A stretch of DNA of 64,000 bases, taken from contig OZ242302.1 in NCBI GenBank assembly GCA_965208025.1, forward strand, positions 1,936,727 through 2,000,726, read 5' to 3'. The translations under genes were made by a program, and so were the position numbers. This document shows, in pieces, positions 36,407 through 51,566 of the stretch. The notes below the pieces were generated by a model. It made no database searches. It was not told the origin of the DNA and saw only the letters and a program-made list of their open reading frames with translations. The first letter of the stretch is position 1. Every line of letters begins with the position of its first letter. This DNA comes from Rhodothermales bacterium (GTDB lineage: Bacteria > Bacteroidota > Rhodothermia > Rhodothermales > Bin80).

Positions 36407-39400
36407 ATGGACAGCCCACCTAAGTCCCTATATGTCAAGAAAATCATGTCAAGATCATTTCTTTCCTGTTCGGGATTGGTGGTGGGTTTTATTCTACTGT
36501 TCTTTGTGCAGGATGTCACTTCACAAACAATAGTGAACATTTGCGACCGAACTGACAAAATTAGAGACGAGATTCTTGCCCAAATCCCGAATCAAACCGA
36601 CTGTGCAACTGTAACGGCCGATCAGTTGTTAGGCATCACGAGTCTTAATTTTAGGATTAAGAGAATCAGAGAGTTACAAGAAGGGGACTTTGCCGGGCTC
36701 ACCAACTTGCAATTTTTGGGCTTGATCAACCGGGGCAATCCTTTTAACCGACCCGAATACTCCACTCTACCTGAGAATCTCTTTGCCGGTCTCTCTAACC
36801 TGACATCATTGTCGCTTGAGAATTCTGAAATCCGTACCCTGCCTGAAAATATCTTTACCCCTCTCACTAACTTGAAAAATCTAGATCTTCAGAGTAATAG
36901 TGGCTTAACCCTATATGCAGATCTCTTTAACGGACTCTCCAAATTGAAAAGTCTGGATTTAGCCTTAATAAACCTAAACAAGTCCCTATCTGCAAATCTC
37001 TTTGCCGGTCTATCCAGCCTGGAAACGCTGGATATGCACAACACTCGCCTCAACAGCTTACCTGTGAATCTATTTACCGGTCTCACCAATCTGAAAAATC
37101 TGAAATTGGATTTTAATTCTTTCAGTGAATTGCGTACCGATTTTTTTGCGGATTTCTCTGGACTACAACTTCTGGAGTTACAGTTTAATTCCTTTAAGAC
37201 ATTGCCTTCAAATTTTTTTGATGGCGTTTCAGGACTGCATGTTAATCTTACGAATAACCCTCTGGAATGCCTACCTCAAAAGATCCTTGATCTCATAAGT
37301 ATGGGGACAATCACAATTTCACATACTTCTGGTGACCTGATGGCCTGTCAGTTTCCAGAGGTCATGTTGGCCTTATCTGAAGATATGATTTTGGAAGGCG
37401 AGTTTACAACGGTCACCGCGACTCTGGATCAAGAATCAACTGAGGAGACGACGGTCACCGTGACGGTCACACCTGATTCACCTGATACGGATGATTTCGC
37501 CATGTTAAGTACGAATGCCGTCCTCACATTTGCGGCGGGAGAAACGGAGAGTTCTGGGGTGGTCACCATCACCGCGGTGGATGATGATATTTACACGGGG
37601 ACCCATATTTTCCATATTGGCGGGATGTCGGAGAATGATTTGGGGATTTACGGTCCTGCTTCTGTGCAACTGACGATCACGGATGACGAAATAGAGCCCT
37701 CCGTCACACTATTGGTCGTGCCCGACGAGGTACGTGAAGATGCTGGAGCAACGAATGTGACGGTGACGGCGATGCTGAATGCGGCGCAGACGACCGACAC
37801 CGAAATAAGGGTTTCGGTGGAATCTGGGACTGCCACATCGGGGATCGACTTTGAGCTCGTCTCTCCGCTCTTTATGACCATTGTGGCAGGTGAGACGGTT
37901 TCGTTCTCTCAGGGGTTTCGCTTTGTACCAATTCAGGATACGGATGTGGACGAGGGAGATGAGACGGTTCAGCTTATCCCGGCGAGTCCGATTCAAATTA
38001 ACACCCCTGCGACGCTTACGATCCTTGATGTGCCTCCTCCTTCGGTGGTCTCGCTGGAGTTGGACGAAGAGAGGATTTCGGAAAACGGCGGCCGCGCGCT
38101 GGTGGAGGCAACTTTGAGTCCCGCCTCCACCGCCGTAACCACCGTCGAAGTCTCTGTAACGCCTGTTTCGCCTGCTACAGAGAGCGATTACGAACCTCTC
38201 ACCACCACCACGCTCACGATTGCTGCAGGGGAGACCTCCAGCACTGGAGCGGTGACGATCACGGCGGTAGACAATGATGTGGATGCGCCGGACAAGATGT
38301 TGCGGGTAAGGGGGGAGGCAACGAGTGTGGAAAGCGTGGTCAGTCCTCCGCCAAGGGAGCTGACCATTGAGGATGATGATCAGGCAACCGAGGTCACGCT
38401 TACGATTTCTCCTGAGGAAGTACTCGAGGACGCAGGAAGCGTACCCATCACGGTCACGGCAGAGCTGGATGTTCTGCGCGGTGAGGACACGGAGGTGAAT
38501 GTTTCGCTCGCAGACGGGACGGCAAATGTGGGCGACGATTTTACTGCCGTCCCCACATTTACGATCACGATTCCCGGGGGAGAGTCCGAGGCTTCGGAGA
38601 CGTTTAGGTTCATGCCGACCAATGACAATGTGGATGAGCCGGATGAGACGGTTCAGGTCACGGGAACGACGCCGGTGGATGGTCTCGCGGTGGCCCCCGC
38701 GGAAGTTACGATTCTGGATGCGACCGAGATGCCCATCGTGACGCTGGCATTAGCCCAACCAATGATTGAAGAAAATGGCGGGAGTACGACCGTGACCGCA
38801 CATCTGGATGCCGCGTCCAGCACGCCGACGGAGATTACGGTCTCGGTGATGCCAAATGCCCCTGCCACTCCAGCGGATTATAACCTGAGTACCAATCGCA
38901 CATTGACGATTCCCCCTGAGGCAACCGAGAGCACGGGGCTGGTCACGATCACGGCGCGGGATAACAATATTGATGCGATGGACAAGACGGTTCGGGTCCA
39001 AGGGCGCGCGATGAACGCGCAACCGGTGACGGATCCTGCGGATGAGACGCTTACGATCACGGATGATGACGATGTCTCCGAGGTCAAGCTTTCGGTTTTT
39101 CCTGAGGAAGTGAACGAAGAGGATGGGCCTACGACGGTCAGGGTCACGGCGTCCATTGAGAATCCACGGGCCGAGGCTACGATGGTCACGATTGCGGTAC
39201 GCTCGGGCACGGCGACTTCGGGAGACGATTTTGCCCCGGTGAACTCGTTTCCCTTGACGATTCCGATCGATGCGACAAGCGAAACGGGGGCGTTTACGTT
39301 GAACCCGACCCCGGACGAGATTCACGAGAGGGACGAGACGATCCTCATTACGGGGAGTAGCGCTCTGGGGACTGATTCCCAGACCCTCCTCTACCTCCGG

Positions 39401-42400
39401 GACAGGGATTCCCCACCCCAGGTGACGTTGAATCTGTCTCCGCCATCTATTTCAGAAAATGGCGGGAGTTCGACGGTCACAGCCATGCTGAGCGCTCCCT
39501 CCAGTGAACCGACCGAGATCATAATCTCAGCCGATCCTATCTTCCCCGCAACGGATGAGGATTATCTGCCGATCGTGGATCATATCCTGACGATTCCAGC
39601 ACTTGCGACTGCGAGTGAGGGAGGGGTGACGATCACGGCCGTAGACAATGCCATTGATGCGCCGGACAAGAGGGTTACCCTAAGGGGCAGCGCAATGAAT
39701 GATTTGGACGTTACGGGCCCCTCGGAGCGGACGCTCACGATCACAGATGACGACAATCTGTCAGGGATTCAACTTACGGTGACGCCTTCCTCCAATGTGA
39801 GTGAAGACGGTGGCACCACGCAGATCACGGTGACGGCAACCTGGGAGGTGGCGCGGAGCGAAGACACACAAGTGACGATTGCGCTGGAGTCCGGCACGGC
39901 GATCTTGGGGGTTGACTTTGCCCCGGTGGATCCCTTTCCCCTCACGATTCTTGCAAATGCGACGAACGGGACGGCGCGCTTTGAATTTACACCGCTCCCC
40001 GATGATCTGCATGAGCCAGAGGAGACGATCCATGTGACGGGATCCAGTCCGCTGGTGCCGGTGGAGCCGGGCACGCTCGCACTCTTTGATTCCGATCTGA
40101 CGCCGGAGGTGATCCTGGAACTGGTCCCGAGCGTCATTGAAGAAGGCGGCGAGTCAAGGATCTCCGCTCGTTTGACAGGCAAGTCCAGCGAGGCAACGAT
40201 GATCACGGTCTCGGCAAGCCATGATCTGCCCGTTACGGAGGAAGACTACGCGTTGAGTCCCGCCCGTACGCTAACCATTGCGGCGGGGGAGTTTACCAGT
40301 ACGGGAGCGGTCACGATCACCGCCGCGGACAATGCCATTGATGCGCCGGATAAGAGGGTCACCGTAAGCGGAACGGCAACGAATCAGAATGGCGTCATGG
40401 GGCCTGCGGATCAGACGCTCACGATCACGGATGAAGACGAAGCGACGGGCATCACGCTTGCGGTGAATCCTACCGAGGTTGATGAAGATGCAGAAAGCGT
40501 ACCGATCACGGTGACCGCAACGCTGGAGGGTGCGCAGCGGAGCACGCCCACGGAGGTGACCATTATGGTAGAAGACGCAACCGCCACCGCAGGAGAGGAC
40601 TATGAGGCCGTGGAGTCCTTTGCGCTCACGATTCCCGCCAATGCCTCCGAAGGGACAGGCACGTTTACGTTCGTGCCGACCGCGGATGAGACTCATGAGC
40701 CAGAGGAAACGGTGCACGTGACGGGGCGGAGCAGTTTGGGCGCCGCAGCGCCAGCCCTGCTCACGATCACGGATACAAATGACATGCCGGAGGTGATGCT
40801 AGTGCTGGATCCTGAAAGTATTCAGGAGAATGAGGAATCTTCAAGTGTGAGGGCGCGCCTGAATGTGGCATCAAGCGAAGTGACGGTGGTGACGATCTCT
40901 GCCGCGGCCATCCCCCCGGCGCGGGAGTCGGATTATAGGCTGATTGAACCCACTACACTTGCGATTGAGGCGGGCGAGATGGAGAGTGTGGGGGCGGTCA
41001 CGATCACGGCGGTGGATAATGCGGTTTCCTCGTCGGAGGACAAGCAGGTGACGGTGAGCGGCCAAGCGTCCAATCCATTGGAGGTAAAGGATCCAGAAGA
41101 TGAAGTGCTGACGATCACCGATGATGAAGGGCCGACGGCGTTCGAGCTTGAGGTGGACCCTCCTGTGGTGAATGAAGGCGATGAACCTCAGCCCGTCACG
41201 GTGACCGTAAAGCTCAACGCTCTGCGCGCTACCGAAACCACTGTGGGGATCACCGTAGCGGATGGCTCGGCCCTGACAGGAGAGGACTATACAGCTGTGC
41301 CACCATCCATTGACGTGAGGATTGCCCCGGATGAGACCACTGGCGAGGGAATGTTTGCGTTGACGCTAAGGGAGGATGCGCTGTACGAGCCCGATGAAAC
41401 GATCCTCCTTATCGGTACAAATGAAGCACTCGGAACGGTCGAGACCTCCCTCACCATCAAGGATGACGATGATGAGATTATTCTGGCGATTCAGGATACG
41501 ACGGTCATGGAGGGGGTCGGGATGGCCCGGGTCCGAATCACGGTGACTCCGGCGGCCCCGGCCGATCTAACGGTGCACTACCAAACGGCGGACGGGAGTG
41601 CCACGGAGGGAGCGGATTATACAGGCGTGGAGGAGGTCCTGACGATCTTGGAGGGGAGCGAGGAGGCATTCATTCCGATTCCGATTACGAACGATGACTT
41701 ATCGGAGGAAGACGAAACGTTCCGGATCCAACTCTCGGATCCTACGGGTGCCGTACTGGAACGAGATCAGGCAACGGTGACCATTGAGGAGGATGATGTG
41801 TACCGTTTACGTGTGGAAGATGCTTCGGCGCAGGAGAGCGATCCAGAGATGATCTTCACGGTGATGCTGGACCCTCCGAACCCCGCGCAGAGGGTACGGG
41901 TCCGGTATGAGACGCTAGACGGGACCGCAATTGCGGGCGTAGATTATGTGTCCCAAAGTGATGTGCTGGAATTTATGCCCAACCAGCCGAGCCGTGAGGT
42001 CAAAGTGCCTCTGGTGCCGGATGATGACCAAGAGGAAATGGACAAGTACTTTTTCCTGCAACTGTCCGATCCCACCCATGCGGTGGTAGACAACGAACAG
42101 GTCCGAGGCACGATTCTGGATGATGACGGGCTGCCGGTAGTCAACATCACGCCAGTGGTCTCCGTAGGGGAAGGGGACGGGATGGTCCGCGTTGAGGTCT
42201 CCCTAACGGGTCCGCTTCCCGAGCAGACGGTCAGTGTGGACTTTCGAGTCACTGAAGAAAGTGCCAAGCCCGCGCAGGATTATGAAGTACAGACTCGAAG
42301 CCCCCTGCGTTTTTCTTCGGGACAGAGGGTGCAGTCCATTGAGATTGAGATCATGGATGATGAACTCTTTGAAGGGGATGAAACGTTTCGGATTGTGCTC

Positions 42401-44653
42401 ATGGATGCAATGCATGGGAGGCTGGGGGAGTCCACCCGTCGCGTCACCATTGAGGACAATGAACAGCCCGTCACCGTGCACATGGAGGGGGGGACGGTCA
42501 ACGAGTCGGCCATGGAGGCCGTCCTCCCGGTAATCCTGAGCGGCAAGGATGGCCGCGTGCGGACATTCAACTACCAGACGGAGGATGGATCTGCGGTAGC
42601 TGGGGAGGACTACACCGCCGGCATGGCCACTGTCACGATCCCGGCGGGTGAATTGCGTCGAGAGATCCGGGTTCCGATCCTGGACGATGAAATCCCCGAA
42701 CCGACCGAAACGTTTCGGGTGGTTCTACAGGGAGGAGAGGACATTCCGGAGGTGAGCGCACAGGTCACGATTCTGGACAATGAGGGGGCGCTCACGGTGG
42801 ATCTTGATGATGCGCGTGCCTCAGAGGGAGATGGGGCGATCCTGCTCCCCATTCGCCTCAGCCGGCCAAGCCTGCAAGCGGTCATGGTAGAGTTTGCCTC
42901 GTCGGATGGGAGTGCAACCGAGGGATCCGATTATGTCTCTTCCAAAGGGATTGTCATCTTTGAGGCGGGGAGTACGAACGGGAAGATCCGCATCCAGATC
43001 CTGGAGGATACGGAGGAAGAACCCGAGGAGACCTTTGCGGTGACGCTTTCCAATGCACGACATGCGGCACTTGGCAAAGGCACCGGGATCGGAACGATTG
43101 TGGACAATGACGGGGGCTCTAATGTCTCGGTCCAAAGCGTCACGGTCTCGCGAAGCGCCGCCATCTTTGAAATGAACCTGTCCAAGCCCTCCACCCTGCC
43201 TGTGCTGGTCAGCTATGCCACCGAAGACGGGACAGCGCTGGCGGGAGAGGATTATGAACCCACCGCCGGGCAGGTGACCTTTGCACCAAGCGAGGTCTCC
43301 AAGACGATTGACGTGAAGCTACTCTCGGGTGAGCGCATCTGGGAGGCGAAGACGTTTGCACTGGTCGTGCTCTCGGCCGTGAATGCAGAGGTCGCGCAGG
43401 CGCGCACGGAAGCGGTGATGGAAGAGGAGAGCGAGGAGAGCATCCAGAATGCGTATGTGGCCCGCGTGCTTCGGACCTGGGCATCCCAACTTGTGGATGC
43501 ATTGTCCCGGCGGATGGAGGGGATGGCGCAGTGCCAGATCCCGGACCTGACATGGCTGCGTGATGGGAGAGCGCGTTGGTCGCTCGGCGAAATCTTTCGC
43601 GGGTGTGGGGCCGAATTTACGCAGGGAGGATGGAGCGTCTGGGGGCAGGGTGCCTATTCGCGTATGCGTGGACAAGATGGTGCGCTCTCGTTGCGTTCGG
43701 ATGTCACGACCATGCTCCTGGGCGCTGACTATGCATGGGATCAGGGATGGATGGCGGGACTCGTCGCCGCACAAAGTTGGGATCAAGGCACCTATGAGAC
43801 GCCAGCGCGCGCTGGCACAGCATCCTCACGATTGACGGGTTTCTATCCCTATGTCAGTTATCAAACGGGAGCGGGCATGCGTGCGTGGATGCTCTTGGGA
43901 TTGGGACGAGGGGAGTCTGAACTGGAAGCCCTGGAAACGGAACTGGATGCAGCGCTGGTTGCGCTCGGGCTGACAGGAACCCTGACGGGCAGCACCACGG
44001 GGCGGTTGGGCTACGAAGTGGATGCCTTCTGGGCGACGGCGGACATGGAGACGGGAACGGATCTAGGCGTCCGGCGGGTCCGGGCAGGTGTGGAAGGGAG
44101 TCTGCGATTGGGAGCGGGCATGGAGCCCTATCTGGAAACTGCGCTTCGGCAGGATGGAGGCGATGCCGAGACAGGACTGGGCATAGAGCTCGGGGGAGGC
44201 ATGCGCTGGTCAGCGAGTCAGTTGCGCGCGGAGGTTGGGGGTCGGACCCTGGTGCTACATACCGATGAAGGACTGCGCGAATGGGGACTGATGGGATCCG
44301 TTGAGTATGGAACGCCGGGCGGGCTGGGCCCCTCTATGCGGGTACGTCCGCTCTGGGGGAATGTGTACGGGGGAGATCTATGGCGCGAAGCACCGCTGCA
44401 TACCATAGGCGTGGGAAGCACGGATCAACGCGTTGAGATGGAACTGGGGTATGGGGCGCCGATCCAGAAAAGCATTGGGCAATCCATTGTGGGAATGACA
44501 GTGGATCCGAGTGGACGCGCTTATCGGGTTGGATACAACGTGCGCATGCGCCAAGGACTGCAAGTCTCGGTCGCGACGACCGCACGCACGATGGAGGCAA
44601 ATGAGGCCCCACCCTCGTACGGACTCAGTGCACGCATGGATCTGAAATGGTGA
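36407..44653 (+). CDS. giant surface protein: signal/TM + leucine-rich repeats + 18 Calx-beta-like modules + C-terminal autotransporter-like beta-barrel
   Basis: 2748-aa ORF. The likely real start is M14 at nt 36446 (MSRSFLSCSGLVVGFILLFFVQ). LRRs (LxxLxLxxNxLxxLPxxLFxGL) span about nt 36640-37290. Twelve alternating A/B Calx-like modules span about 37352-41472, and six canonical Calx-beta modules (DGSA.eG.DY...DDxxxExDExF) span about 41473-43430. A Trp/Gly/Tyr-rich beta-strand region spans about 43560-44650 and ends in ...SARMDLKW. Confidence 0.85.
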   Translation: MDSPPKSLYVKKIMSRSFLSCSGLVVGFILLFFVQDVTSQTIVNICDRTDKIRDEILAQIPNQTDCATVTADQLLGITSLNFRIKRIRELQEGDFAGLTNLQFLGLINRGNPFNRPEYSTLPENLFAGLSNLTSLSLENSEIRTLPENIFTPLTNLKNLDLQSNSGLTLYADLFNGLSKLKSLDLALINLNKSLSANLFAGLSSLETLDMHNTRLNSLPVNLFTGLTNLKNLKLDFNSFSELRTDFFADFSGLQLLELQFNSFKTLPSNFFDGVSGLHVNLTNNPLECLPQKILDLISMGTITISHTSGDLMACQFPEVMLALSEDMILEGEFTTVTATLDQESTEETTVTVTVTPDSPDTDDFAMLSTNAVLTFAAGETESSGVVTITAVDDDIYTGTHIFHIGGMSENDLGIYGPASVQLTITDDEIEPSVTLLVVPDEVREDAGATNVTVTAMLNAAQTTDTEIRVSVESGTATSGIDFELVSPLFMTIVAGETVSFSQGFRFVPIQDTDVDEGDETVQLIPASPIQINTPATLTILDVPPPSVVSLELDEERISENGGRALVEATLSPASTAVTTVEVSVTPVSPATESDYEPLTTTTLTIAAGETSSTGAVTITAVDNDVDAPDKMLRVRGEATSVESVVSPPPRELTIEDDDQATEVTLTISPEEVLEDAGSVPITVTAELDVLRGEDTEVNVSLADGTANVGDDFTAVPTFTITIPGGESEASETFRFMPTNDNVDEPDETVQVTGTTPVDGLAVAPAEVTILDATEMPIVTLALAQPMIEENGGSTTVTAHLDAASSTPTEITVSVMPNAPATPADYNLSTNRTLTIPPEATESTGLVTITARDNNIDAMDKTVRVQGRAMNAQPVTDPADETLTITDDDDVSEVKLSVFPEEVNEEDGPTTVRVTASIENPRAEATMVTIAVRSGTATSGDDFAPVNSFPLTIPIDATSETGAFTLNPTPDEIHERDETILITGSSALGTDSQTLLYLRDRDSPPQVTLNLSPPSISENGGSSTVTAMLSAPSSEPTEIIISADPIFPATDEDYLPIVDHILTIPALATASEGGVTITAVDNAIDAPDKRVTLRGSAMNDLDVTGPSERTLTITDDDNLSGIQLTVTPSSNVSEDGGTTQITVTATWEVARSEDTQVTIALESGTAILGVDFAPVDPFPLTILANATNGTARFEFTPLPDDLHEPEETIHVTGSSPLVPVEPGTLALFDSDLTPEVILELVPSVIEEGGESRISARLTGKSSEATMITVSASHDLPVTEEDYALSPARTLTIAAGEFTSTGAVTITAADNAIDAPDKRVTVSGTATNQNGVMGPADQTLTITDEDEATGITLAVNPTEVDEDAESVPITVTATLEGAQRSTPTEVTIMVEDATATAGEDYEAVESFALTIPANASEGTGTFTFVPTADETHEPEETVHVTGRSSLGAAAPALLTITDTNDMPEVMLVLDPESIQENEESSSVRARLNVASSEVTVVTISAAAIPPARESDYRLIEPTTLAIEAGEMESVGAVTITAVDNAVSSSEDKQVTVSGQASNPLEVKDPEDEVLTITDDEGPTAFELEVDPPVVNEGDEPQPVTVTVKLNALRATETTVGITVADGSALTGEDYTAVPPSIDVRIAPDETTGEGMFALTLREDALYEPDETILLIGTNEALGTVETSLTIKDDDDEIILAIQDTTVMEGVGMARVRITVTPAAPADLTVHYQTADGSATEGADYTGVEEVLTILEGSEEAFIPIPITNDDLSEEDETFRIQLSDPTGAVLERDQATVTIEEDDVYRLRVEDASAQESDPEMIFTVMLDPPNPAQRVRVRYETLDGTAIAGVDYVSQSDVLEFMPNQPSREVKVPLVPDDDQEEMDKYFFLQLSDPTHAVVDNEQVRGTILDDDGLPVVNITPVVSVGEGDGMVRVEVSLTGPLPEQTVSVDFRVTEESAKPAQDYEVQTRSPLRFSSGQRVQSIEIEIMDDELFEGDETFRIVLMDAMHGRLGESTRRVTIEDNEQPVTVHMEGGTVNESAMEAVLPVILSGKDGRVRTFNYQTEDGSAVAGEDYTAGMATVTIPAGELRREIRVPILDDEIPEPTETFRVVLQGGEDIPEVSAQVTILDNEGALTVDLDDARASEGDGAILLPIRLSRPSLQAVMVEFASSDGSATEGSDYVSSKGIVIFEAGSTNGKIRIQILEDTEEEPEETFAVTLSNARHAALGKGTGIGTIVDNDGGSNVSVQSVTVSRSAAIFEMNLSKPSTLPVLVSYATEDGTALAGEDYEPTAGQVTFAPSEVSKTIDVKLLSGERIWEAKTFALVVLSAVNAEVAQARTEAVMEEESEESIQNAYVARVLRTWASQLVDALSRRMEGMAQCQIPDLTWLRDGRARWSLGEIFRGCGAEFTQGGWSVWGQGAYSRMRGQDGALSLRSDVTTMLLGADYAWDQGWMAGLVAAQSWDQGTYETPARAGTASSRLTGFYPYVSYQTGAGMRAWMLLGLGRGESELEALETELDAALVALGLTGTLTGSTTGRLGYEVDAFWATADMETGTDLGVRRVRAGVEGSLRLGAGMEPYLETALRQDGGDAETGLGIELGGGMRWSASQLRAEVGGRTLVLHTDEGLREWGLMGSVEYGTPGGLGPSMRVRPLWGNVYGGDLWREAPLHTIGVGSTDQRVEMELGYGAPIQKSIGQSIVGMTVDPSGRAYRVGYNVRMRQGLQVSVATTARTMEANEAPPSYGLSARMDLKW
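37352..43430 (+). repeat. array of 18 Calx-beta-like coding modules (~110 aa each)
   Basis: Repeated ...TITDDD / ...TILD module boundaries are read from the translation. Modules 1-12 alternate between two sub-types: A is ...ENGGS..V.A.L...S....I.VS......A...DY...., and B is ...V.EDAG...ITVTA.L.......T.V.....GTA..G.DF. Confidence 0.8.
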
Positions 44654-44876: not shown

Positions 44877-47800
44877 ATGGGAATCAATCGTCCATTTTCT
44901 CTACTGACGCTAAGCTTCATCTTGGTCTTACACTCTGGTAGTGTCCGAGTAGTTGCCCAGAATGTCTCAGAGACAGTGCCCCAAGTTGTAGTGGTTCAAT
45001 TTAAAGAAGGAATTGATTTTCAAGGAAAAACAGCTACGACGGGCTTGCAGGTTTTTGATCGCATGGCGGCAACGTATGGGGTGCATACCATTGAGCGAAT
45101 GTACCCAATGTTAGATCATGTAGAACCGACCCCAAAGATACGGGATAATCTGATGGCCCTGCGCCGCACCTACTATGTGCGCTACAGTGCCAGTGATCTT
45201 CCTCAAGAAGTTTCCAACTCCCTATCTCTCGCGCCTGGCATCGTCTACGCCGAACCCGTTCCTGTCATTCGTATTCATGAATCCGTTGACTGGGAGCGCA
45301 TTGATCCTAACGACCCCAGATTCGATGAACAGACACATTTGAATGTCCTAAACCTGCCAGAAGCCTGGAATGTGGTAAAAAGCGAAGATACGAATCCCCG
45401 AGTAGTAATCGCGATCGTGGACGGAGGAGGCGAATGGAGACACGAGGATCTTCGCGCCAATGTCTGGACGAACGAAGATGAAATACCGAATAACGGGATT
45501 GATGACGATAATAATGGATTCATTGATGATGTGCATGGCATTAACTTTGCCAATGAAGACGATAATGATCATGATCCAACAGGACTACGACTGAGTCCAC
45601 GAAATGCACGCCATGGCACTGCGGTTGCAGGGTCGGCCAGTGCAGTGACAGACAACAACATAGGCGTGTCAGGTGCGGCCTGGAATGCAGAACTCATGCA
45701 CATCAATGCGGGATGTGCCGAATCTGGATCTGATAGGACACTGTGCAGACCTTATCCTGGCGTTGTTTATGCTGCTATGAATGGCGCCGACATTATTAAT
45801 GCAAGTTGGGGCAGTCAACCGGGAGAAGACGAAGGGTTGTTTCGGTTCGTGGACCAGACGATTAACTTGGTTACCGACATGGGTGCATTGGTTGTAGCCT
45901 CGGCGGGAAATAGAAATGTAAGTCTGGATGTATCCCCCCAATATCCAGCGGTACACCCGCGTGTTCTCTCCGTGGGATCCATCAGGAATGATCGCATGAA
46001 AGCAGGCTCTTCCAACTACGGGAAACTGGTTAACGTATTTGCTCCTGGAGCCGGAATCACTACTACTAGTTCAAATAACGACTACACCATCACCAACGGG
46101 ACCTCACATGCGGCACCTCTGATTTCTGGAGTGGCCGCCTTGGTGAAGACAAGGTCCCCGAACCTGTCTGCAGATGCACTTCGGGAACAAGTCAGGCTTT
46201 CCAGTGAGAGCATTGACGCTGAGAATCCCAGTTTTGCCGGCCTAATGGGGAGGGGATTAGTCAATGCGCTGGCTGCCGTTCAAGAACCCAGCCTGCCCGC
46301 CATACGACTCCAGCGCTGGTCGTGGGAAGATCAGGATGGTGATTTGATCATAGAGTCTGGCGACCGTGTCACCATCGAAATGGTCATCGTTAACCATCTC
46401 GCCGATGCCAATCAACTCCGAGTGGAGCTTGTGGGAAGTCGCTCCTATCCATTTTTGCAGTGGTCCACATCCGAAGTTGAAGTTGGCACTCTTGCCAGCG
46501 GTGATGAAACCGAAATAACCTTTGAGTTTACCGTAGAGTCCAACTCTCCTTCCAACCCATTACTACGACTCTTCCTTAATATTCGTGACGGAGACTTTAA
46601 AGATAGGTTGGATCGGATTACACTTGGTGCTAACTCCCAACAACCAGCATCAGCGGTTTTCCCAAGTTTGCAGGCATTTTATCTAGCGACAGACGGCGAT
46701 AATTGGGCCCGCAATGACAACTGGGATCTTTCAAAAAGTCCGACCGCAGACGAACTTGAGAATTGGTTCGGGATCACGATGAACCAAGGATTATTGTCTC
46801 AATTATCCATGGGAAGAAATAACCTCAATGGGACCTTGCCTCCCGAACTTGCCAATCTAAGTGATCTTCAGATTCTTGAACTTTTTAATAATGAGAAACT
46901 TGCAGGCCAGATTCCTGCCGAACTTGGAACCCTCCCCCAACTGTGGGGGCTGTACCTTGAATCCAATTCCCTTTCTGGATTGATCCCAACGGAACTCGGA
47001 AACCTTGAACAACTCATTGACCTGCGCCTGCCCAATAATTCTCTCTCCGGGCCAATCCCGTCCGAATTCGGAAACCTTAAACAACTGGTTGGACTGATCC
47101 TGCATAACAATTTCCTTTCTGGGTCAATCCCACCCGAACTTGGGAATCTTTCTCAACTGGGGCAACTGTCCTTTGGTCTCAATGACCTTACTGGACCGAT
47201 TCCACCCGAACTGGGGAACCTTGAACATTTGGTGGATCTGGATCTGTCCCAAAATGCCCTCTCTGGATCCATTCCAGCCGAACTGGGGAAGCTTTCCAAA
47301 TTGGAACAGCTATATCTTCAAGGAAATAACCTCTCTGGGCCCATCCCTAGAAGTTTGATGCAATTAGATAACTTACAATTATTTTTTTTCGGTGGCCAAA
47401 GGGTTTGTTCTCCCCCTGATGATGAGTTTCAAACGTGGCTGAAAAGTATTCCGAGTACGTTTGGACCTGTATGTAGAGGATTCCAGTTTTTTAGTGTTAT
47501 CACGGATCAAGCATTCCCGCTTGGACTTCCTATTTCTCCGTTAATCCTGCCCGAGGCCCAAGGGGGTACTCCGCCGATCACCTACACTCTAACCCCCTCA
47601 CTCCCCACCGGGCTTGAATACGATTCATCAACCCGCACCATTCATGGAACGCCGTCGGTGGTTACCTCTACTCCAATTCCCTATACATTCAAGGCCACCG
47701 ATGCCAATGGTGCGGAGGCTACTGTGATTTTCAGTATTGAAGTCTTCGGCCCCGTCTCGTCGGAGCAGGAAGGATTACCAGAATTATTTGCGGTCTATGA

Positions 47801-48059
47801 AAATTATCCGAATCCTTTCTCAGAGTCCACGCTTCTGGTCGTAAACCTCCCCTGGCCTGCCACTCTGAATGTGGAGGTTTTTGATGTAACAGGACGGAAT
47901 GTACTTTCTCGGACTCCTGTGAATCTGACGGCTGGCTGGCGTCAAAGTATTCGTCTGGATGGCTCGGACCTACCCTCTGGCATATACTTATATCAGATTC
48001 ATGTTCAATCGGAGGTGGGAACTCAAACACAATCTGGTCGCTTCGTGCGGATGCAATAG
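44877..48059 (+). CDS. secreted S8 (subtilisin-like) serine protease with plant-type LRR array, Ig-like domain and T9SS C-terminal sorting domain
   Basis: The catalytic triad is in VVIAIVDGG, HGTAVAG and GTSHAAPLISG. There are about 8 LRRs of 24 aa (L.GPIPPELGNL.QL..L.L..N.LSG) at about nt 46790-47390. A putative Ig domain (PPITYTLTPSLPTGLEYDSSTRTIHGTP) follows. The C-terminus YENYPNPFSESTLL...GIYLYQIH...RFVRMQ is a T9SS type A sorting domain. Confidence 0.9.
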   Translation: MGINRPFSLLTLSFILVLHSGSVRVVAQNVSETVPQVVVVQFKEGIDFQGKTATTGLQVFDRMAATYGVHTIERMYPMLDHVEPTPKIRDNLMALRRTYYVRYSASDLPQEVSNSLSLAPGIVYAEPVPVIRIHESVDWERIDPNDPRFDEQTHLNVLNLPEAWNVVKSEDTNPRVVIAIVDGGGEWRHEDLRANVWTNEDEIPNNGIDDDNNGFIDDVHGINFANEDDNDHDPTGLRLSPRNARHGTAVAGSASAVTDNNIGVSGAAWNAELMHINAGCAESGSDRTLCRPYPGVVYAAMNGADIINASWGSQPGEDEGLFRFVDQTINLVTDMGALVVASAGNRNVSLDVSPQYPAVHPRVLSVGSIRNDRMKAGSSNYGKLVNVFAPGAGITTTSSNNDYTITNGTSHAAPLISGVAALVKTRSPNLSADALREQVRLSSESIDAENPSFAGLMGRGLVNALAAVQEPSLPAIRLQRWSWEDQDGDLIIESGDRVTIEMVIVNHLADANQLRVELVGSRSYPFLQWSTSEVEVGTLASGDETEITFEFTVESNSPSNPLLRLFLNIRDGDFKDRLDRITLGANSQQPASAVFPSLQAFYLATDGDNWARNDNWDLSKSPTADELENWFGITMNQGLLSQLSMGRNNLNGTLPPELANLSDLQILELFNNEKLAGQIPAELGTLPQLWGLYLESNSLSGLIPTELGNLEQLIDLRLPNNSLSGPIPSEFGNLKQLVGLILHNNFLSGSIPPELGNLSQLGQLSFGLNDLTGPIPPELGNLEHLVDLDLSQNALSGSIPAELGKLSKLEQLYLQGNNLSGPIPRSLMQLDNLQLFFFGGQRVCSPPDDEFQTWLKSIPSTFGPVCRGFQFFSVITDQAFPLGLPISPLILPEAQGGTPPITYTLTPSLPTGLEYDSSTRTIHGTPSVVTSTPIPYTFKATDANGAEATVIFSIEVFGPVSSEQEGLPELFAVYENYPNPFSESTLLVVNLPWPATLNVEVFDVTGRNVLSRTPVNLTAGWRQSIRLDGSDLPSGIYLYQIHVQSEVGTQTQSGRFVRMQ

Positions 48060-48356: not shown

Positions 48357-51300
48357 ATGAGAATTGATCCATCATTATTTCTACTGACACTGGGCTTCTC
48401 TTTTGTTTCGCTCTTCGGTAGCATGCGAGTAATTGCCCAGAGCGTCTCCGAGGTAGTGCCTCAGGTGGTGGTGGTGCAATTTGAAGAGGGCGTTGATTTA
48501 CTCGGAAAAACAGTCACCACTGGCTTACAGATCTTTGATCGTAAAGCAGCCGCCTATGGAGTACATACCATTGAGCGGATGTATCCTTTTCTTGATTATG
48601 TAGAACCGACTCCCCAGACGAGGGATAATCTGATGGCCCTGCGCCGAACCTACTCTGTGCACTACAGCGCCAATGACATTCCTCAGCGGGTTTCAACGGA
48701 CTTATCTCATGCATCAGGTGTCGTCTACGCCGAACCCTTACTTGTGAATCATATTTCTGGATCAGCTCACTGGGATCATATCAATCCGAATGATCCCAGA
48801 TTTGTAGAGCAAATCGAATTGACAGCTCTAAACCTTCCCGAGGCATGGGATGTTGTGAAAGCTTCGGACAGTACGCCGACAGTGGTAATCGCAATTGTTG
48901 ACGGAGGGAGCGAATGGCGACATGAGGATCTTCTCGCCAATGTGTGGACGAACGAAGATGAAATTCCTGACAACAGGATTGATGACGACATGAATGGATT
49001 CATTGATGATGTGCATGGTGTGAACTTCGCCAATCAGGATGATTATGACCATGACCCTACTGGGCTACGTCTAACTCCGCGAAACGCAATGCATGGCACG
49101 GCGGTTGCCGGAGCAGCAAGTGCAGTGACCGACAATAAGTTAGGAGTGTCAGGTGCTGCCTGGAATGCGGAACTGATGCATATCAATGTGGGATGTGCTA
49201 CCTCTGATCGTCGAATTTGTGAAGGATACACTGGCATTCTTTATGCAGCTACCAATGGCGCCGACATCATCAATACCAGTTGGGGCGCAACGTTACAAAA
49301 TGACTTTGATGCTAGGCTTCCTGTTCAAACGCTTGAACTTGTCACCGATATGGGATCTCTGGTTGTCGCCTCAGCGGGGAATTTTGATACAAACCTGGAC
49401 GAAAATACTCGCTATCCGGCCCAACACCCGCGTGTACTCTCAGTAGGGTCTACACAGAAGGATATGCGCGTGAAAGCGCGATCATCCAGCTTTGGTAGAC
49501 AGGTCAGTGTGTTTGCCCCCGGAGTCAATATTATTACCACGGGATCAGATAACGAATACATTACGATCAGCGGCACATCATTTTCGACTCCCCTTACTTC
49601 AGGGGTGGCTGCCTTGGTGAGGACTCGGTTCCCCAATCTATCTCCAGATGCCCTGCGAGAGCATGTACGGTTAACGAGCGAGAACATTGACGCTGAAAAC
49701 CCTGACTTTGCTGGCTTGATGGGGCGGGGATTTGTCAATGCACAGCGAGCCACGCAAGAACCCAACCTACCTGCGATACGTCTCAAGGACTGGTCATGGG
49801 CAGATCATGATGGTAATCGCATCATTGAGCCTACCGACCGGGTGACGATCTCAATGGACATAGTCAACTATCTCAACGATGCCAACCAATTCCATGTGGA
49901 ACTTGCAGGAGACGAAGTCTATCCATTCATTGAGTGGGCTACATCTGAGATTGAGATCGGCCCTCTTGCTGGTGGTGCTTCAACCGAAGTAGACTTTGAG
50001 TTCACAGTTGGCCCCAATGCTCCACCCGATCAGTTCATACGACTTTTCGTACATGTTCGTGATGGAGACTTTAACGATGTTACGGACCGGATCACGTTTC
50101 GTGTGAACCGACAGCTTGAACAAGTCTATCAGGGTCTGAGAGCATTTTACAATGCGACAGGCGGAGATCACTGGACTGAGAAACACAATTGGGATGTTTC
50201 AAACATTCCGACCGAGACAGAACTGGCCAGTTGGGTTGGTGTTACGGTCAAGGAGGGGTTGGTCGTTGAACTGAAGATGGAAAAAAACAATCTCAATGGA
50301 ACCTTGCCTCCTGAACTTGGGAACCTGAGAAATCTTCAGATTCTTGAACTTGTTGAGAATAGGGGATTGAGTGGTCAGATTCCATCCCAACTCGGAAACC
50401 TTGAACGACTGATAGAACTGAACCTATCCGAAAATTCTCTCTCTGGCCCGATCCCGCCTGAATTAGAGAACCTCAAACAACTTGACGATCTGGATCTATC
50501 GCACAATTCTCTTTCTGGTTCAATCCCCCCTGAACTCGGGAATCTTGAACAACTGGAAAAACTAATCCTTACACGCAATTCTCTCACTGGCCCAGTCCCC
50601 CCTGAAATCGGAAACCTTAAACGGCTGTGGATTCTATTTTTGTCTGGCAATTCCCTTTCTGGCTCTATCCCGCCTGAACTAGAAAATAGTACAGGATTAC
50701 GATTCATTGGTCTGTCCTATAATCTGCTGTCCGGTCCGATTCCACCTGAGCTTGGGAATCTCGAACCACTATGGCAATTGAACCTGGGGCATAATTCCCT
50801 TTCAGGATCCATCCCGGCGGAACTTGGAAAAATAAAACAACTTCGATCTCTGAACCTTTCCAGCAACACACTTTCTGGGCCAATTCCTCCAGAACTTGGT
50901 GATCTTGAACAACTGGAAGAATTAATCCTATCCAATAACGCTCTCTCCGGTCCCATTCCGCCTGAACTTGGAAACCTCAAAATGCTTGAAGAACTGGATC
51001 TGTCACGTAATTCCCTGGGAGGCCCAATCCCCCCCGAACTGGGGAATCTCCCACAGTTGAGGCGTCTAATCCTCAGTCAGAATACTCTCACTGGGCAGAT
51101 TCCTCGAAGCTTCTTGGGGTTAAATCGTCTGGAAGTTTTTCATTTTAAGGGGCAGAATCTGTGTGCTCCTGCCGATGATGAATTTCAAATGTGGCTGAAT
51201 CGTATTCGAGATCATCTGGGGCCTACCTGCACTCCGTTACAGGTTGACGATGAAACCTCAGATTATTCGTCGACACACGGACTACCCGAATCGTTCAAGG

Positions 51301-51566
51301 TATATGAAAACTATCCTAACCCTTTTCATGAATTCACACTCTTGACGGTTGACCTGCCCTGGCCTGCCACACTCAATGTGGATATATTTGATGTCACTGG
51401 ACGGAGGGTATTATCCCAAACAGCTGCAGATCTAACGCCAGGCTGGCGCCAGAGTATCCATCTCACGGGATCATCATTGCCCTCAGGTCTATATCTTTAC
51501 CAGATTCATGTGCAATCACAGGCAGGTATTGAGACACATGCCGGCCGCATTGTTCGTATGCGCTAA
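48357..51566 (+). CDS. secreted S8 serine protease with expanded plant-type LRR array and T9SS C-terminal sorting domain (tandem paralog of 44877-48059)
   Basis: The triad is in VVIAIVDGG, HGTAVAG and GTSFSTPLTSG. There are about 12 LRRs at about nt 50270-51150, and no Ig domain. The C-terminus is YENYPNPFHEFTLL...GLYLYQIH...RIVRMR. Confidence 0.9.
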   Translation: MRIDPSLFLLTLGFSFVSLFGSMRVIAQSVSEVVPQVVVVQFEEGVDLLGKTVTTGLQIFDRKAAAYGVHTIERMYPFLDYVEPTPQTRDNLMALRRTYSVHYSANDIPQRVSTDLSHASGVVYAEPLLVNHISGSAHWDHINPNDPRFVEQIELTALNLPEAWDVVKASDSTPTVVIAIVDGGSEWRHEDLLANVWTNEDEIPDNRIDDDMNGFIDDVHGVNFANQDDYDHDPTGLRLTPRNAMHGTAVAGAASAVTDNKLGVSGAAWNAELMHINVGCATSDRRICEGYTGILYAATNGADIINTSWGATLQNDFDARLPVQTLELVTDMGSLVVASAGNFDTNLDENTRYPAQHPRVLSVGSTQKDMRVKARSSSFGRQVSVFAPGVNIITTGSDNEYITISGTSFSTPLTSGVAALVRTRFPNLSPDALREHVRLTSENIDAENPDFAGLMGRGFVNAQRATQEPNLPAIRLKDWSWADHDGNRIIEPTDRVTISMDIVNYLNDANQFHVELAGDEVYPFIEWATSEIEIGPLAGGASTEVDFEFTVGPNAPPDQFIRLFVHVRDGDFNDVTDRITFRVNRQLEQVYQGLRAFYNATGGDHWTEKHNWDVSNIPTETELASWVGVTVKEGLVVELKMEKNNLNGTLPPELGNLRNLQILELVENRGLSGQIPSQLGNLERLIELNLSENSLSGPIPPELENLKQLDDLDLSHNSLSGSIPPELGNLEQLEKLILTRNSLTGPVPPEIGNLKRLWILFLSGNSLSGSIPPELENSTGLRFIGLSYNLLSGPIPPELGNLEPLWQLNLGHNSLSGSIPAELGKIKQLRSLNLSSNTLSGPIPPELGDLEQLEELILSNNALSGPIPPELGNLKMLEELDLSRNSLGGPIPPELGNLPQLRRLILSQNTLTGQIPRSFLGLNRLEVFHFKGQNLCAPADDEFQMWLNRIRDHLGPTCTPLQVDDETSDYSSTHGLPESFKVYENYPNPFHEFTLLTVDLPWPATLNVDIFDVTGRRVLSQTAADLTPGWRQSIHLTGSSLPSGLYLYQIHVQSQAGIETHAGRIVRMR

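Follow-up and report, generated by a model that had tools for sequence, protein, structure and literature searches.

A giant leucine-rich repeat and Calx-beta protein with a predicted autotransporter-like outer-membrane barrel in a Rhodothermales bacterium

The window analyzed here, a 64,000-nt stretch of the Rhodothermales contig OZ242302.1 (assembly GCA_965208025.1), contains a giant gene whose product is probably an adhesin-like protein of the cell surface, with export and anchoring through a type V-like (autotransporter-like) mechanism. From the N terminus to the C terminus, the product comprises a Sec signal, leucine-rich repeats (LRRs), 18 modules in the arrangement (AB)6C6, a conserved helix, and a C-terminal domain that is predicted to be an outer-membrane beta-barrel of 18 rather than 12 strands. 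Translation revealed no stop codon across the 8.2 kb of the open reading frame. A preliminary description of the sequence had reported a single 2748-aa frame beginning with a signal segment; the frame was intact and an n-h-c region was indeed found at its start. The features and their positions are listed in Table 1.

Table 1. Features of the giant gene and its downstream neighbors, with positions in the window
Feature	Position	Strand	Basis
Whole open reading frame, 2748 aa from the first ATG	36407..44653	+	Sequence
Sec-type signal peptide, aa 14-39, MSRSFLSCSGLVVGFILLFFVQDVTS, then Q40	36446..36523	+	Sequence and paralogue N termini
LRR head, aa 40-312	36524..37342	+	Pfam, 72-nt DNA period, Cys positions
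Six A/B di-modules M1-M12, aa 313-1688	37343..41470	+	In-protein HMM, identities, DNA period, Pfam
Six canonical Calx-beta modules M13-M18, aa 1686-2342	41462..43432	+	Pfam; bounds from in-protein HMM
Junction alpha-helix, aa 2346-2371 (IQNAYVARVLRTWASQLVDALSRRMEG)	43442..43519	+	AF2, pLDDT 92-93
Linker with Cys2376/Cys2400 and a short strand	43520..43630	+	AF2, low model confidence; Cys positions
Predicted outer-membrane beta-barrel, aa 2409-2748	43631..44650	+	AF2, amphipathicity, PF03797, TIGR01414, Foldseek
DGGDAETG motif, aa 2583-2590, turn between predicted strands 9 and 10	44153..44176	+	Alignments, AF2
Two paralogous S8 peptidase, LRR and T9SS C-terminal-domain proteins, downstream	44877-48059, 48357-51566	+	Domain search

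An alignment of the N termini of 27 paralogues indicated that the true start is probably M14 (ATG at window position 36446), which would give a protein of 2735 aa. The n-h-c layout was common to all 27, as was the sequence ...(T/S)A followed, across the putative cleavage site, by Q(T/P)V.IC.RT. The signal peptide of the giant protein was recognized by inspection, and we infer that cleavage occurs after MSRSFLSCSGLVVGFILLFFVQDVTS. A Pfam search of aa 1-313 gave matches above the gathering score to LRR_8 (PF13855; 81.3 bits in four stretches) and LRR_5 (PF13306; 57.3 bits), and the DNA encoding the LRR head had a 72-nt period with six copies. Approximately nine LRR units were counted by eye at aa 77-300, close to the 9-10 repeats first estimated, and they are flanked by an N-cap (Cys46/Cys66) and a C-cap (Cys288/Cys314).

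An HMM iterated within the protein delimited exactly 18 contiguous modules of approximately 115 aa each between aa 313 and 2342. The odd-numbered modules of the first twelve (A; M1-M11) were 38-58% identical to one another and the even-numbered modules (B; M2-M12) 30-51%, whereas the identity between A and B was 22-37%; the DNA period of 684-690 nt corresponded to two modules. These bounds and identities bear out the six A/B pairs followed by six canonical modules that were originally proposed. Calx-beta (PF03160) was matched by the whole protein at an E-value of 1e-127 (419.6 bits, 11 stretches). The initial assignment of all 18 modules to Calx-beta holds for their number and for the strongly matching M13-M18 (80 bits for M13 alone), and less well for the others. 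The two B modules scanned scored 18 and 30.5 bits, one below and one above the cut-off of 27, and the A modules remained under the Pfam cut-offs, at 23 bits against Calx-beta for the one that matched it and at 21-25 bits against the LapA domain. On these scores, the A modules are LapA-domain/Calx-beta-like and the B modules are divergent Calx-beta. Their family membership and acidic junction motifs suggest that the stalk modules would bind Ca2+.

The A/B unit had also been proposed to have been amplified as a block. The architectures of the 28 closest paralogues support this proposal, since all 28 follow the pattern LRR-(AB)n-C6 with n ranging from 0.5 to 7; the support does not come from within the gene, where a Mantel test did not find the histories of the A and B modules significantly congruent (r 0.38; reached by 122 of 720 permutations). 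Tandem Repeats Finder found no tandem array in the gene, on which ground we rejected recent repeat amplification or collapse, and the internal repeats were only 60-76% identical in DNA.

The structure of the C-terminal region was predicted with AF2. The model of the window protein contains 18 long strands and one short strand after a 26-residue helix, with a pLDDT of 85.7 and a pTM of 0.81, and an amphipathic period-2 signal runs along the barrel region. An alphaproteobacterial homologue that is 32% identical gave the same 18+1 strand count (pLDDT 81.3) from an independent 57-sequence alignment. The Gly/Trp/Tyr-rich C terminus had been read as a barrel from its alternating composition and aromatic ending, and this reading agrees with the model: the protein ends in ...SARMDLKW, and a W/F/Y-ended beta-signal such as ...R[WFY] was present in nearly all of 120 homologues. 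The predicted helix lies 38 residues ahead of strand 1 and is conserved across phyla; the pattern A[YW][LV][AS]RF.RT... for its motif matched 72 of the 120 homologues, and in one MAG of an alphaproteobacterium the motif likewise directly precedes the barrel. In the linker, Cys2376 and Cys2400 were invariant in a five-sequence Rhodothermales-type alignment. The DGGDAETG turn is predicted, by strand parity, to be on the extracellular side. This motif was highly conserved, although not invariant, in an unbiased set of homologues; its invariance in another alignment is circular, as that alignment was gathered with patterns that included DGGDAET.

The kinship of the barrel with autotransporter domains was sought in the profile databases. 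The isolated last 399 aa matched the autotransporter beta-domain PF03797 barely above threshold (27.7 bits against a cut-off of 26), while the whole protein reached only 23.1 bits; TIGR01414 gave 23.4 bits against a cut-off of 16. Thirteen of 24 diverse family members matched PF03797, with a best E-value of 3.2e-14. At the level of the family, these profile matches show that the barrel is homologous to autotransporter beta-domains. The proposed likeness to a type Va translocator thus stands as far as these matches go, but not in strand number, nor over the full profile, of which only positions 1-94 of 255 were matched. When the PDB was searched by sequence profile from the alignment of barrels, nothing was found (best E 0.27), and Foldseek found no close fold in the PDB, the best TM-scores being only 0.46-0.56. 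The top Foldseek matches were 22-strand TonB-dependent transporters (TMq 0.46-0.48), which we read as an effect of size and not as kinship. The barrels of BrkA, Hbp, EstA, and EspP were also among the matches and had the highest sequence identity there.

These autotransporter barrels, together with the PF03797 and TIGR01414 matches, would equally be expected if the domain were an ordinary 12-strand type Va barrel in which AlphaFold had over-counted long extracellular hairpins or an extra sheet. We consider this unlikely. In both models, made for such divergent proteins from different alignments, short turns connect 18 long strands. The stretch between the start of strand 1 and the C terminus measures 340 residues, against 255 positions in the Pfam model, and in a paralogue, profile positions 1-208 were consumed by the initial ~180 residues, with a further ~158 residues falling outside the alignment. 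Moreover, the target-normalized TM-score to 12-strand barrels was only 0.52-0.56, and 22-strand barrels aligned over more columns. Duplication of a six-strand unit may have given rise to the 18-strand barrel predicted by both models.

Homologous loci, which the preliminary description had suggested seeking in relatives, proved to be widespread. In its own phylum, the barrel is confined to one family. Beyond that phylum it was found in MAGs from about ten others, and a tree of the barrels does not separate the phyla but interleaves them. Clustering at 50% identity gives the barrel family 10,861 representatives, and among the 150 matches listed, nearly all have the domain at, or a few residues from, the C terminus. 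The passengers of the homologues all consist of beta-sandwich or LRR repeats (Calx-beta, FN3, cadherin, He_PIG, and BIg). The symbiont sets of Aplysina aerophoba and Ircinia ramosa, whose MAGs are labeled APA_bin and SB0661, include relatives of the barrel. The family is common to uncultured bacteria of many phyla, several of which are known sponge symbionts. The eukaryote-like domain classes LRR, Calx-beta, fn3, and cadherin have been found to be enriched in sponge-associated genomes (PMC11706023). Eukaryote-like proteins of sponge symbionts resemble the giant protein in having identical domain classes and, through the MAGs above, relatives of its barrel; surveys of such proteins, however, count domains only. 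Our literature search found no account of the common C-terminal barrel, of its size or of its multi-phylum spread, and no description of either an 18-strand autotransporter or a Calx-beta-passenger autotransporter in sponge symbionts.

Two S8 peptidases, 57% identical to each other, are encoded immediately downstream, and the product of the first also contains a He_PIG domain. Both have a T9SS C-terminal sorting domain (PF18962, Por_Secre_tail), which Pfam did not find in the giant protein. BLASTP detected no similarity at E<=1e-3 between the LRR head of the giant protein and the LRR regions of these peptidases. BspA-type LRR proteins, which are T9SS cargo in Bacteroidota, share the LRR_5 match (57 bits in the head), and many T9SS LRR cargo proteins occur in this organism, the products of the next two genes included; the giant protein differs from them in having a barrel anchor and no T9SS C-terminal domain. 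A protein with such a barrel had been thought unusual in an organism that uses T9SS. This view was not upheld, since the genome contains 39 such genes (280,014 bp, or 7.43% of the genome) beside 55 T9SS C-terminal-domain sites.

Comparison with the nearest paralogue revealed a gradient along the gene: identity was 55% in the LRR tip and 99.5% in the barrel, and dS from head to barrel was 0.655, 0.125, 0.085, and 0.023. With dS climbing in this way from the barrel to the head, either the 3' ends have been homogenized or the heads swapped. Upstream of the paralogues, a common promoter or an invertible element was sought and the idea rejected, the sole similarities there being the 3' ends of upstream tandem paralogues. 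Stalk lengths were graded across the paralogues from 6 to 20 modules. Such a graded set of 39 genes would fit a layered coat, and in other adhesins, cited in PMC12153261, Calx-beta arrays make homophilic contacts that depend on Ca. The protein might accordingly be exported for a purpose other than host adhesion, such as a shed or coat-forming matrix, for example a glycocalyx-like layer of long stalks through which bacteria aggregate with one another, or a shield against phage or sponge phagocytosis. We regard this as distinctly improbable; no cleavage motif or sign of shedding was found, and the variability of the LRR tips relative to the barrels favors diversified ligand recognition over a uniform coat. 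Given the domain types and the habitat of the related genomes, the ligands of the adhesin-like protein are likely to be molecules of the matrix or cell surface of the sponge host, or else other bacteria.

Among known systems, the type Va autotransporters (Hbp, EspP, BrkA, EstA, and NalP) share with the giant protein a Sec signal, a passenger, a helical junction, a C-terminal barrel, and an aromatic beta-signal, as well as sequence homology over the first part of the barrel. They differ in having 12 strands instead of the predicted 18 and a beta-helical passenger in place of LRR and Ig-like Calx-beta domains; the DGGDAETG turn and the AY(V/L)ARF.RT helix motif are conserved in the present family. 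The giant adhesins of type I secretion systems (T1SS), such as LapA and SiiE, have no Sec signal and carry a C-terminal RTX/T1SS signal and an N-terminal retention module. They are similar in their long Calx-beta/LapA-domain/Ig-like stalk, acidic junctions, and distal ligand-binding region, and the A modules give sub-threshold LapA-domain matches; in contrast to them, the giant protein combines a Sec signal with a C-terminal barrel, and no RTX family was found in it by Pfam or NCBIfam searches. Calx-beta-like domains have been noted in LapA itself (PMC12153261). The type Ve proteins intimin and invasin likewise present a barrel-anchored tandem Ig-like passenger with a recognition domain at its tip, but with reversed topology: the type Ve barrel, which has 12 strands, is N-terminal, and the barrel described here is C-terminal. 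Pfam found no match to type Ve families in the giant protein. These inverse autotransporters are the subject of a review (PMC4943183).

A search for BamA/TamA partners, proposed at the outset, located five Omp85 genes and two TamB genes in the genome, one TamB gene being ~4 kb from an Omp85 gene. They suggest a capacity for BAM/TAM-dependent passenger export and are not proof of it. We propose that the Sec signal would direct the unfolded chain into the periplasm, where BAM/TAM would insert the C-terminal domain in the outer membrane via the terminal aromatic beta-signal, with the conserved helix and the linker placed in or under the pore. The passenger of ~2,300 residues would then be threaded outward, C-terminal end first, so that the six canonical Calx-beta modules would be the first to emerge. 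Once outside the cell, successive Ig-like modules would fold in a Ca2+-dependent manner, which might both provide a directional pull and stiffen the stalk, and the disulfide-capped LRR head would form the ligand-binding part at the distal tip. An Ig-like module spans ~4 nm, which would place the tip ~70 nm out, and the stalk length would be set by the number of AB di-modules. Gene conversion or recent copying would keep the barrel ends similar while the heads diverge, yielding a repertoire of tips on a common anchor. One point against this explanation is that a single helix would leave part of an 18-strand pore unoccupied.

BcsC and PgaA have periplasmic repeats and a C-terminal 16-strand barrel. 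The domain order of the giant protein, with large N-terminal repeats and a C-terminal barrel, is identical to theirs, and its barrel might likewise serve only as a pore or anchor for 2,300 N-terminal residues that stay in the periplasm. Such a location is very unlikely. The passenger is composed of LRR and Calx-beta/Ig-like adhesion modules with disulfide caps, and when extended it would be several periplasm widths long; furthermore, the barrel is homologous to those of autotransporters and not to the BcsC/PgaA types, and the junction helix typical of autotransporters is conserved.

The repetitive nature of the gene, its many paralogues, and a step up in GC3 between the head (0.45) and the body (0.66) could point to repeat collapse, chimeric assembly, or a decaying pseudogene, but an artefact is scarcely credible for an uninterrupted frame with such divergent internal repeats and no detectable array, given that the nearest paralogue and one protein from another genome are collinear with the giant protein over its full length, that the paralogues have the identical GC break, and that the chromosome is a single 3.745-Mb contig. 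GC-biased gene conversion was examined as the source of the high GC3, and barrel GC3 correlated weakly with how similar each barrel is to that of its nearest paralogue (rho 0.30, p 0.12).

To our knowledge, the fused type V barrels described to date all have 12 strands, except that the Omp85-like type Vd has 16. A broader reading, which we hold to be doubtful as a whole, is that the family represents an undescribed wide-bore type V subclass, in which an 18-strand fused barrel derived from a 12-strand autotransporter and a six-strand duplication would be specialized for Ca2+-folding Ig-like/LRR passengers and would have spread horizontally among sponge-microbiome phyla. The host-like Calx-beta stalks and variable LRR tips might then interact with the Calx-beta-rich aggregation factor of the sponge or with its matrix, so that the bearer would be marked as a resident and not as food.

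If true, a fused 18-strand relative of the autotransporters would widen the meaning of "autotransport", and its barrel would be a natural system for testing whether the export of folded or fast-folding passengers is limited by pore size. The dS gradient along the gene represents a clear case in which the anchor undergoes concerted evolution while the binding head diversifies. The family provides a common outer-membrane anchor that comprises more than 10,000 sequence clusters, crosses phyla, and occupies 7% of one genome, with interchangeable tips and graded stalks, and it thus constitutes a testable molecular object behind the enrichment, noted for a long time, of "eukaryote-like" domains (LRR, Calx-beta, fn3, and cadherin) among sponge symbionts.

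The gene under study comprises 2748 codons in one open frame and encodes a protein with a leucine-rich repeat (LRR) head, 18 modules (M1-M18), a junction helix and a C-terminal barrel. In an alignment with 27 full-length paralogues, their N-termini coincide with its second methionine, M14; a start there yields a 2735-aa product, equal in length to the nearest paralogue, with a leader of classical Sec type (MSRSFLSCSGLVVGFILLFFVQDVTS followed by QTIVNICDRT). Pfam detected LRR matches in the head and 11 stretches of Calx-beta (E 1e-127), and no T9SS sorting domain in the protein. Its seven cysteines follow an orderly arrangement.

Features of the window gene and related loci (aa, residues of the window protein; C1, chromosome of the source genome; identity and dS are relative to the nearest paralogue)
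Feature	Position	Properties	Amino-acid identity	dS
Window gene	36407-44653 (+)
M14	window 36446
Cys, signal peptide		one
Cys pair, LRR N-cap	46, 66
Head			55%	0.655
LRR_8 and LRR_5 matches	aa ~94-286	Pfam
Cys pair, LRR C-cap	288, 314
Modules M1-M18	aa 313-2342
AB array			90%	0.125
C array			94.6%	0.085
Junction helix	aa 2346-2371	26 residues; AlphaFold2, pLDDT above 90
Linker between helix and barrel		AlphaFold2, low confidence
Cys pair, linker before barrel	2376, 2400
Barrel		18 long strands and one short, turns mostly 2-7 residues; AlphaFold2	99.5%	0.023
Partial autotransporter beta-domain match	aa 2411-2504	Pfam
Nearest paralogue	C1:2799592-2807799
Member beginning inside an A module	C1:3437434-3441789 (-)	1451 aa
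Gene adjoining it	C1:3428173-3437232
QLKRQF-type member	C1:332465-345607	4380 aa
Pair with near-identical barrels	C1:852830-857455	ABC6
	C1:864149-870754	(AB)3C6
S8 peptidase-LRR neighbours	44877-48059 (+)
	48357-51566 (+)
T9SS sorting domain	around C1:26718-26963 (+)	end of 8,989-aa open frame
DNA polymerase III alpha subunit	23327-27265 (+)	1312 aa; Intein_splicing match aa 775-905

A module HMM seeded with one canonical module and iterated on the window protein itself recovered exactly 18 contiguous modules. The module identity matrix bore out the A/B alternation of the preliminary description: the odd modules of M1-M11 (A) share 38-58% identity and the even modules of M2-M12 (B) 30-51%, with 22-37% between odd and even, and M13-M18 (C) form a third, looser class (21-35%). 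The label of 18 Calx-beta modules holds as homology within the protein but is generous as a family assignment, since, scanned singly, M13 matched Calx-beta strongly (80 bits), the B modules weakly (18-30 bits), and the A modules scored below both cut-offs, at 23 bits for Calx-beta and 21-25 bits for the LapA domain. The DNA period of the array is 684-690 nt, or two modules. As DNA identity between copies is just 60-76% and Tandem Repeats Finder reported no array in the gene, the array is old, and repeat collapse is an unlikely artefact.

The source genome (G+C 47.6%) consists of a single-contig chromosome of 3.745 Mb, which holds the window, and a 23-kb second contig (22,994 bp), whose G+C content is 39.8%, versus 47.6% for the chromosome; this contig may be a plasmid or phage. 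A family search with the last 400 residues retrieved 39 ORFs of 1385-4380 aa, totalling 280,014 bp or 7.43% of the genome, and in 28 of them the barrel is 75-100% identical to that of the window gene. These close paralogues have an LRR head, (AB)n and nearly always C6 (four or five C modules in a few), where n is 0.5, 1, 1.5, 2, 2.5, 3, 4, 6 or 7; classification of every module as A, B or C made the window gene (AB)6C6. Since n varies among the paralogues, their sequences indicate that the AB pair is the unit of stalk-length variation. Block amplification of a two-module unit, as proposed earlier, is supported by these architectures; within the window gene taken alone, however, congruence between the A and B identity matrices was not significant (Mantel r 0.38, 122/720 permutations). 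One of the 28 is a headless, 5'-truncated copy. The 1451-aa family member begins within an A module (MTITAVDNDIDGPDK...) and lacks a signal peptide and LRR head, so it is probably a copy from a tandem cluster that has lost its 5' part. Six ORFs ending in QLKRQF or similar form a second barrel subfamily, in which a single B-like module precedes 11-27 A-like (LapA-domain-like) ones. The closely similar, QLKREF-ending barrel of a related Rhodothermales genome (L065) clusters with alphaproteobacterial barrels in our tree, which suggests that this subfamily was acquired separately.

AlphaFold2 modelling of the window sequence together with A1, an alignment of 24 diverse homologues from a 5.8-billion-protein collection, each cut to its last ~400-440 residues, predicted a C-terminal barrel (mean pLDDT 85.7, pTM 0.81) in which one 22-residue loop separates strands 13 and 14. 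A second model, for an alphaproteobacterial MAG protein 32% identical to the window sequence, used A3, a 57-sequence barrel alignment from genome loci; it again gave 18 long strands and one short (pLDDT 81.3), both models coming from the same protein family. The period-2 hydrophobic signal of the alignment tracks the predicted strands, and an outer-membrane beta-signal, ...R/x-[WFY], terminates nearly all homologues. We regard a true count of 18 strands as rather likely.

A profile search of PDB sequences with the barrel domain found nothing, and Foldseek found no close fold for it. The 22-strand TonB-dependent barrels aligned over more columns than any other hits (TMq 0.46-0.48); Hbp, EstA, BrkA and EspP, autotransporter barrels of 12 strands, reached TM 0.52-0.56 (own-length normalised) and had the highest sequence identity among the Foldseek matches (12-18%). 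PF03797 matched 13 of the 24 A1 members (best E 3.2e-14), and the NCBIfam model TIGR01414, 'autotransporter outer membrane beta-barrel domain', scored 23.4 bits on the window protein (cut-off 16). Together with the strand counts, these matches indicate that the domain is related to autotransporter beta-domains, with a predicted size one and a half times theirs. The classical autotransporter is the closest known system: the window protein shares its signal peptide, beta-domain model and beta-signal but, by prediction, not its 12 strands. Giant Ca-dependent repeat adhesins of the LapA and SiiE type resemble the window protein in working but differ in export route. The first ~180 barrel residues of one paralogue already use up positions 1-208 of the Pfam profile. 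In a profile-profile comparison, strands 7-12 matched strands 13-18 (75% probability, E 2.5e-5). Both results tentatively hint at duplication of a six-strand unit in the C-terminal half of the barrel.

The turn between strands 9 and 10 carries the motif DGGDAETG, which is highly conserved in the unbiased A1; in A3 its invariance reflects ascertainment, since the locus search behind A3 used the same motif. Counting strand parity from the periplasmic C-terminus would place this turn outside the cell. The junction helix carries the motif A-[YW]-[LV]-[AS]-R-F-x-R-T, whose regular expression matched 72 of 120 homologues; in the alphaproteobacterial protein it occurs as AWLARFGRTVAEQALDGIAGRI, directly after the last Calx-beta module.

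Divergence from the nearest paralogue was graded along the gene, and relative to a third paralogue dS was 1.40 in the head, 0.84 in the AB array, 0.40 in the C array and 0.05 in the barrel. The sequences point either to gene conversion that homogenises the 3' ends or to exchange of heads; purifying selection alone was ruled out because the synonymous rate is graded too. The head has a dN/dS ratio of about 0.5, against about 0.1 for the barrel, and 17 of the 28 close-paralogue barrels have a partner at least 96% identical in DNA. One pair, whose barrels are 99.8% identical in DNA on stalks of different length, reflects a conversion or duplication that is very recent and confined to the 3' end. 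A sharp composition break was also observed within the window gene and likewise in its paralogues: GC3 is 0.45 in the head, near the genome value of 0.46 +/- 0.06, and rises to 0.66 and 0.64 in stalk and barrel, respectively. Either foreign origin or GC-biased gene conversion may account for the elevated values; among the close-paralogue barrels, GC3 correlated weakly with identity to the nearest paralogue barrel (rho 0.30, p 0.12).

Searched with the barrel profile, 1.84 billion cluster representatives gave 10,861 matching proteins at a threshold of E<=1e-3 and 6,274 at E<=1e-30. Of the 150 matches listed, nearly all had the domain ending at the C-terminus or a few residues off. Within the genus the barrel was present in 23 of 24 genomes (1-39 copies each), and the sole genome sampled from a second genus of the family had 34 copies. 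At E<=1e-10, 16 other families of the order and 150 further genomes of the phylum (89 genera) all lacked it. A scan of 185,579 species genomes yielded >475 barrel relatives, the best 80 of which were all from MAGs; two sponges, Aplysina aerophoba and Ircinia ramosa, are the source of the bins labelled APA_bin and SB0661 (PMC11706023). Taxa among the best 80 were Rhodothermales, Vicinamibacterales, Longimicrobiales, Alpha- and Gammaproteobacteria, Nitrospirales, Spirochaetia, Latescibacterota, Binatia, Entotheonella/Tectimicrobiota and one Dehalococcoidia bin. Apart from the bins of these two sponges, the taxa listed are, as groups, usual members of high-microbial-abundance sponge consortia. 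The Dehalococcoidia-labelled MAG has a complete family barrel (L059, on the 442-kb contig CBDHFB010000011.1; beta-signal ...GLMLRGALRW), although this lineage is usually regarded as being without an outer membrane; mis-binning, mis-labelling or a real surprise could be responsible.

In a maximum-likelihood tree of 57 barrels, those of Rhodothermota/Bacteroidota, including that of the window gene, formed a single clade (support 100/100). Outside it phyla were interleaved, with groups of Nitrospirota, Binatota, Alpha- and Gammaproteobacteria (100/98), of Spirochaetota and Acidobacteriota (100/100), and of Gemmatimonadota, Acidobacteriota and Latescibacterota (100/100); this interleaving indicates transfer of the barrel between phyla. 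Repeats of Calx-beta, fn3, cadherin, He_PIG, BIg or LRR type occur in the passengers of relatives, and the beta-helix families typical of classical autotransporter passengers were listed for no homologue.

The next two genes encode S8 peptidase-LRR proteins with a T9SS C-terminal sorting domain; they are tandem paralogues (57% identical), the first also with a He_PIG domain, and the LRR regions of both lack BLASTP similarity to the window protein's LRR head at E<=1e-3. One 15-kb locus thus displays LRR modules via two export routes. The genome has 55 T9SS sorting-domain matches, as well as five Omp85-family and two TamB genes, one TamB lying ~4 kb from an Omp85 gene. The 8,989-aa open frame with a terminal T9SS sorting domain encodes a still larger surface protein on the T9SS route. 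With the 39 barrel genes, the counts of sorting-domain, Omp85 and TamB matches indicate that both routes coexist at large scale; a barrel-anchored protein, earlier thought unusual among T9SS exoproteins, belongs to a major class here. Elsewhere in the window, the Intein_splicing match in DNA polymerase III alpha sits between the finger and HhH domains and suggests a mini-intein in DnaE.

The kind of protein is already known, since the NCBI model would give the name 'autotransporter outer membrane beta-barrel domain-containing protein'. No such barrel was described in the literature searched; new here are how large it is, its conserved motifs in helix and turn, the rule of (AB)n stalks, and the concerted evolution and multi-phylum spread. 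Overall, the window gene quite probably encodes an exported, barrel-anchored, adhesin-like surface protein. Sec would export it, BAM/TAM would insert the barrel into the outer membrane, and the passenger would thread C-to-N, the helix and linker staying in or under the pore. Seawater Ca2+ would drive folding of the Calx-beta modules outside the cell, and the LRR tip would bind a ligand tens of nanometres off the cell. Sponge aggregation factors are themselves made of Calx-beta domains (PMC5400394), and sponge symbionts are enriched in Calx-beta, LRR, fn3 and cadherin domains (PMC11706023), which makes a host-directed role of the window protein plausible.
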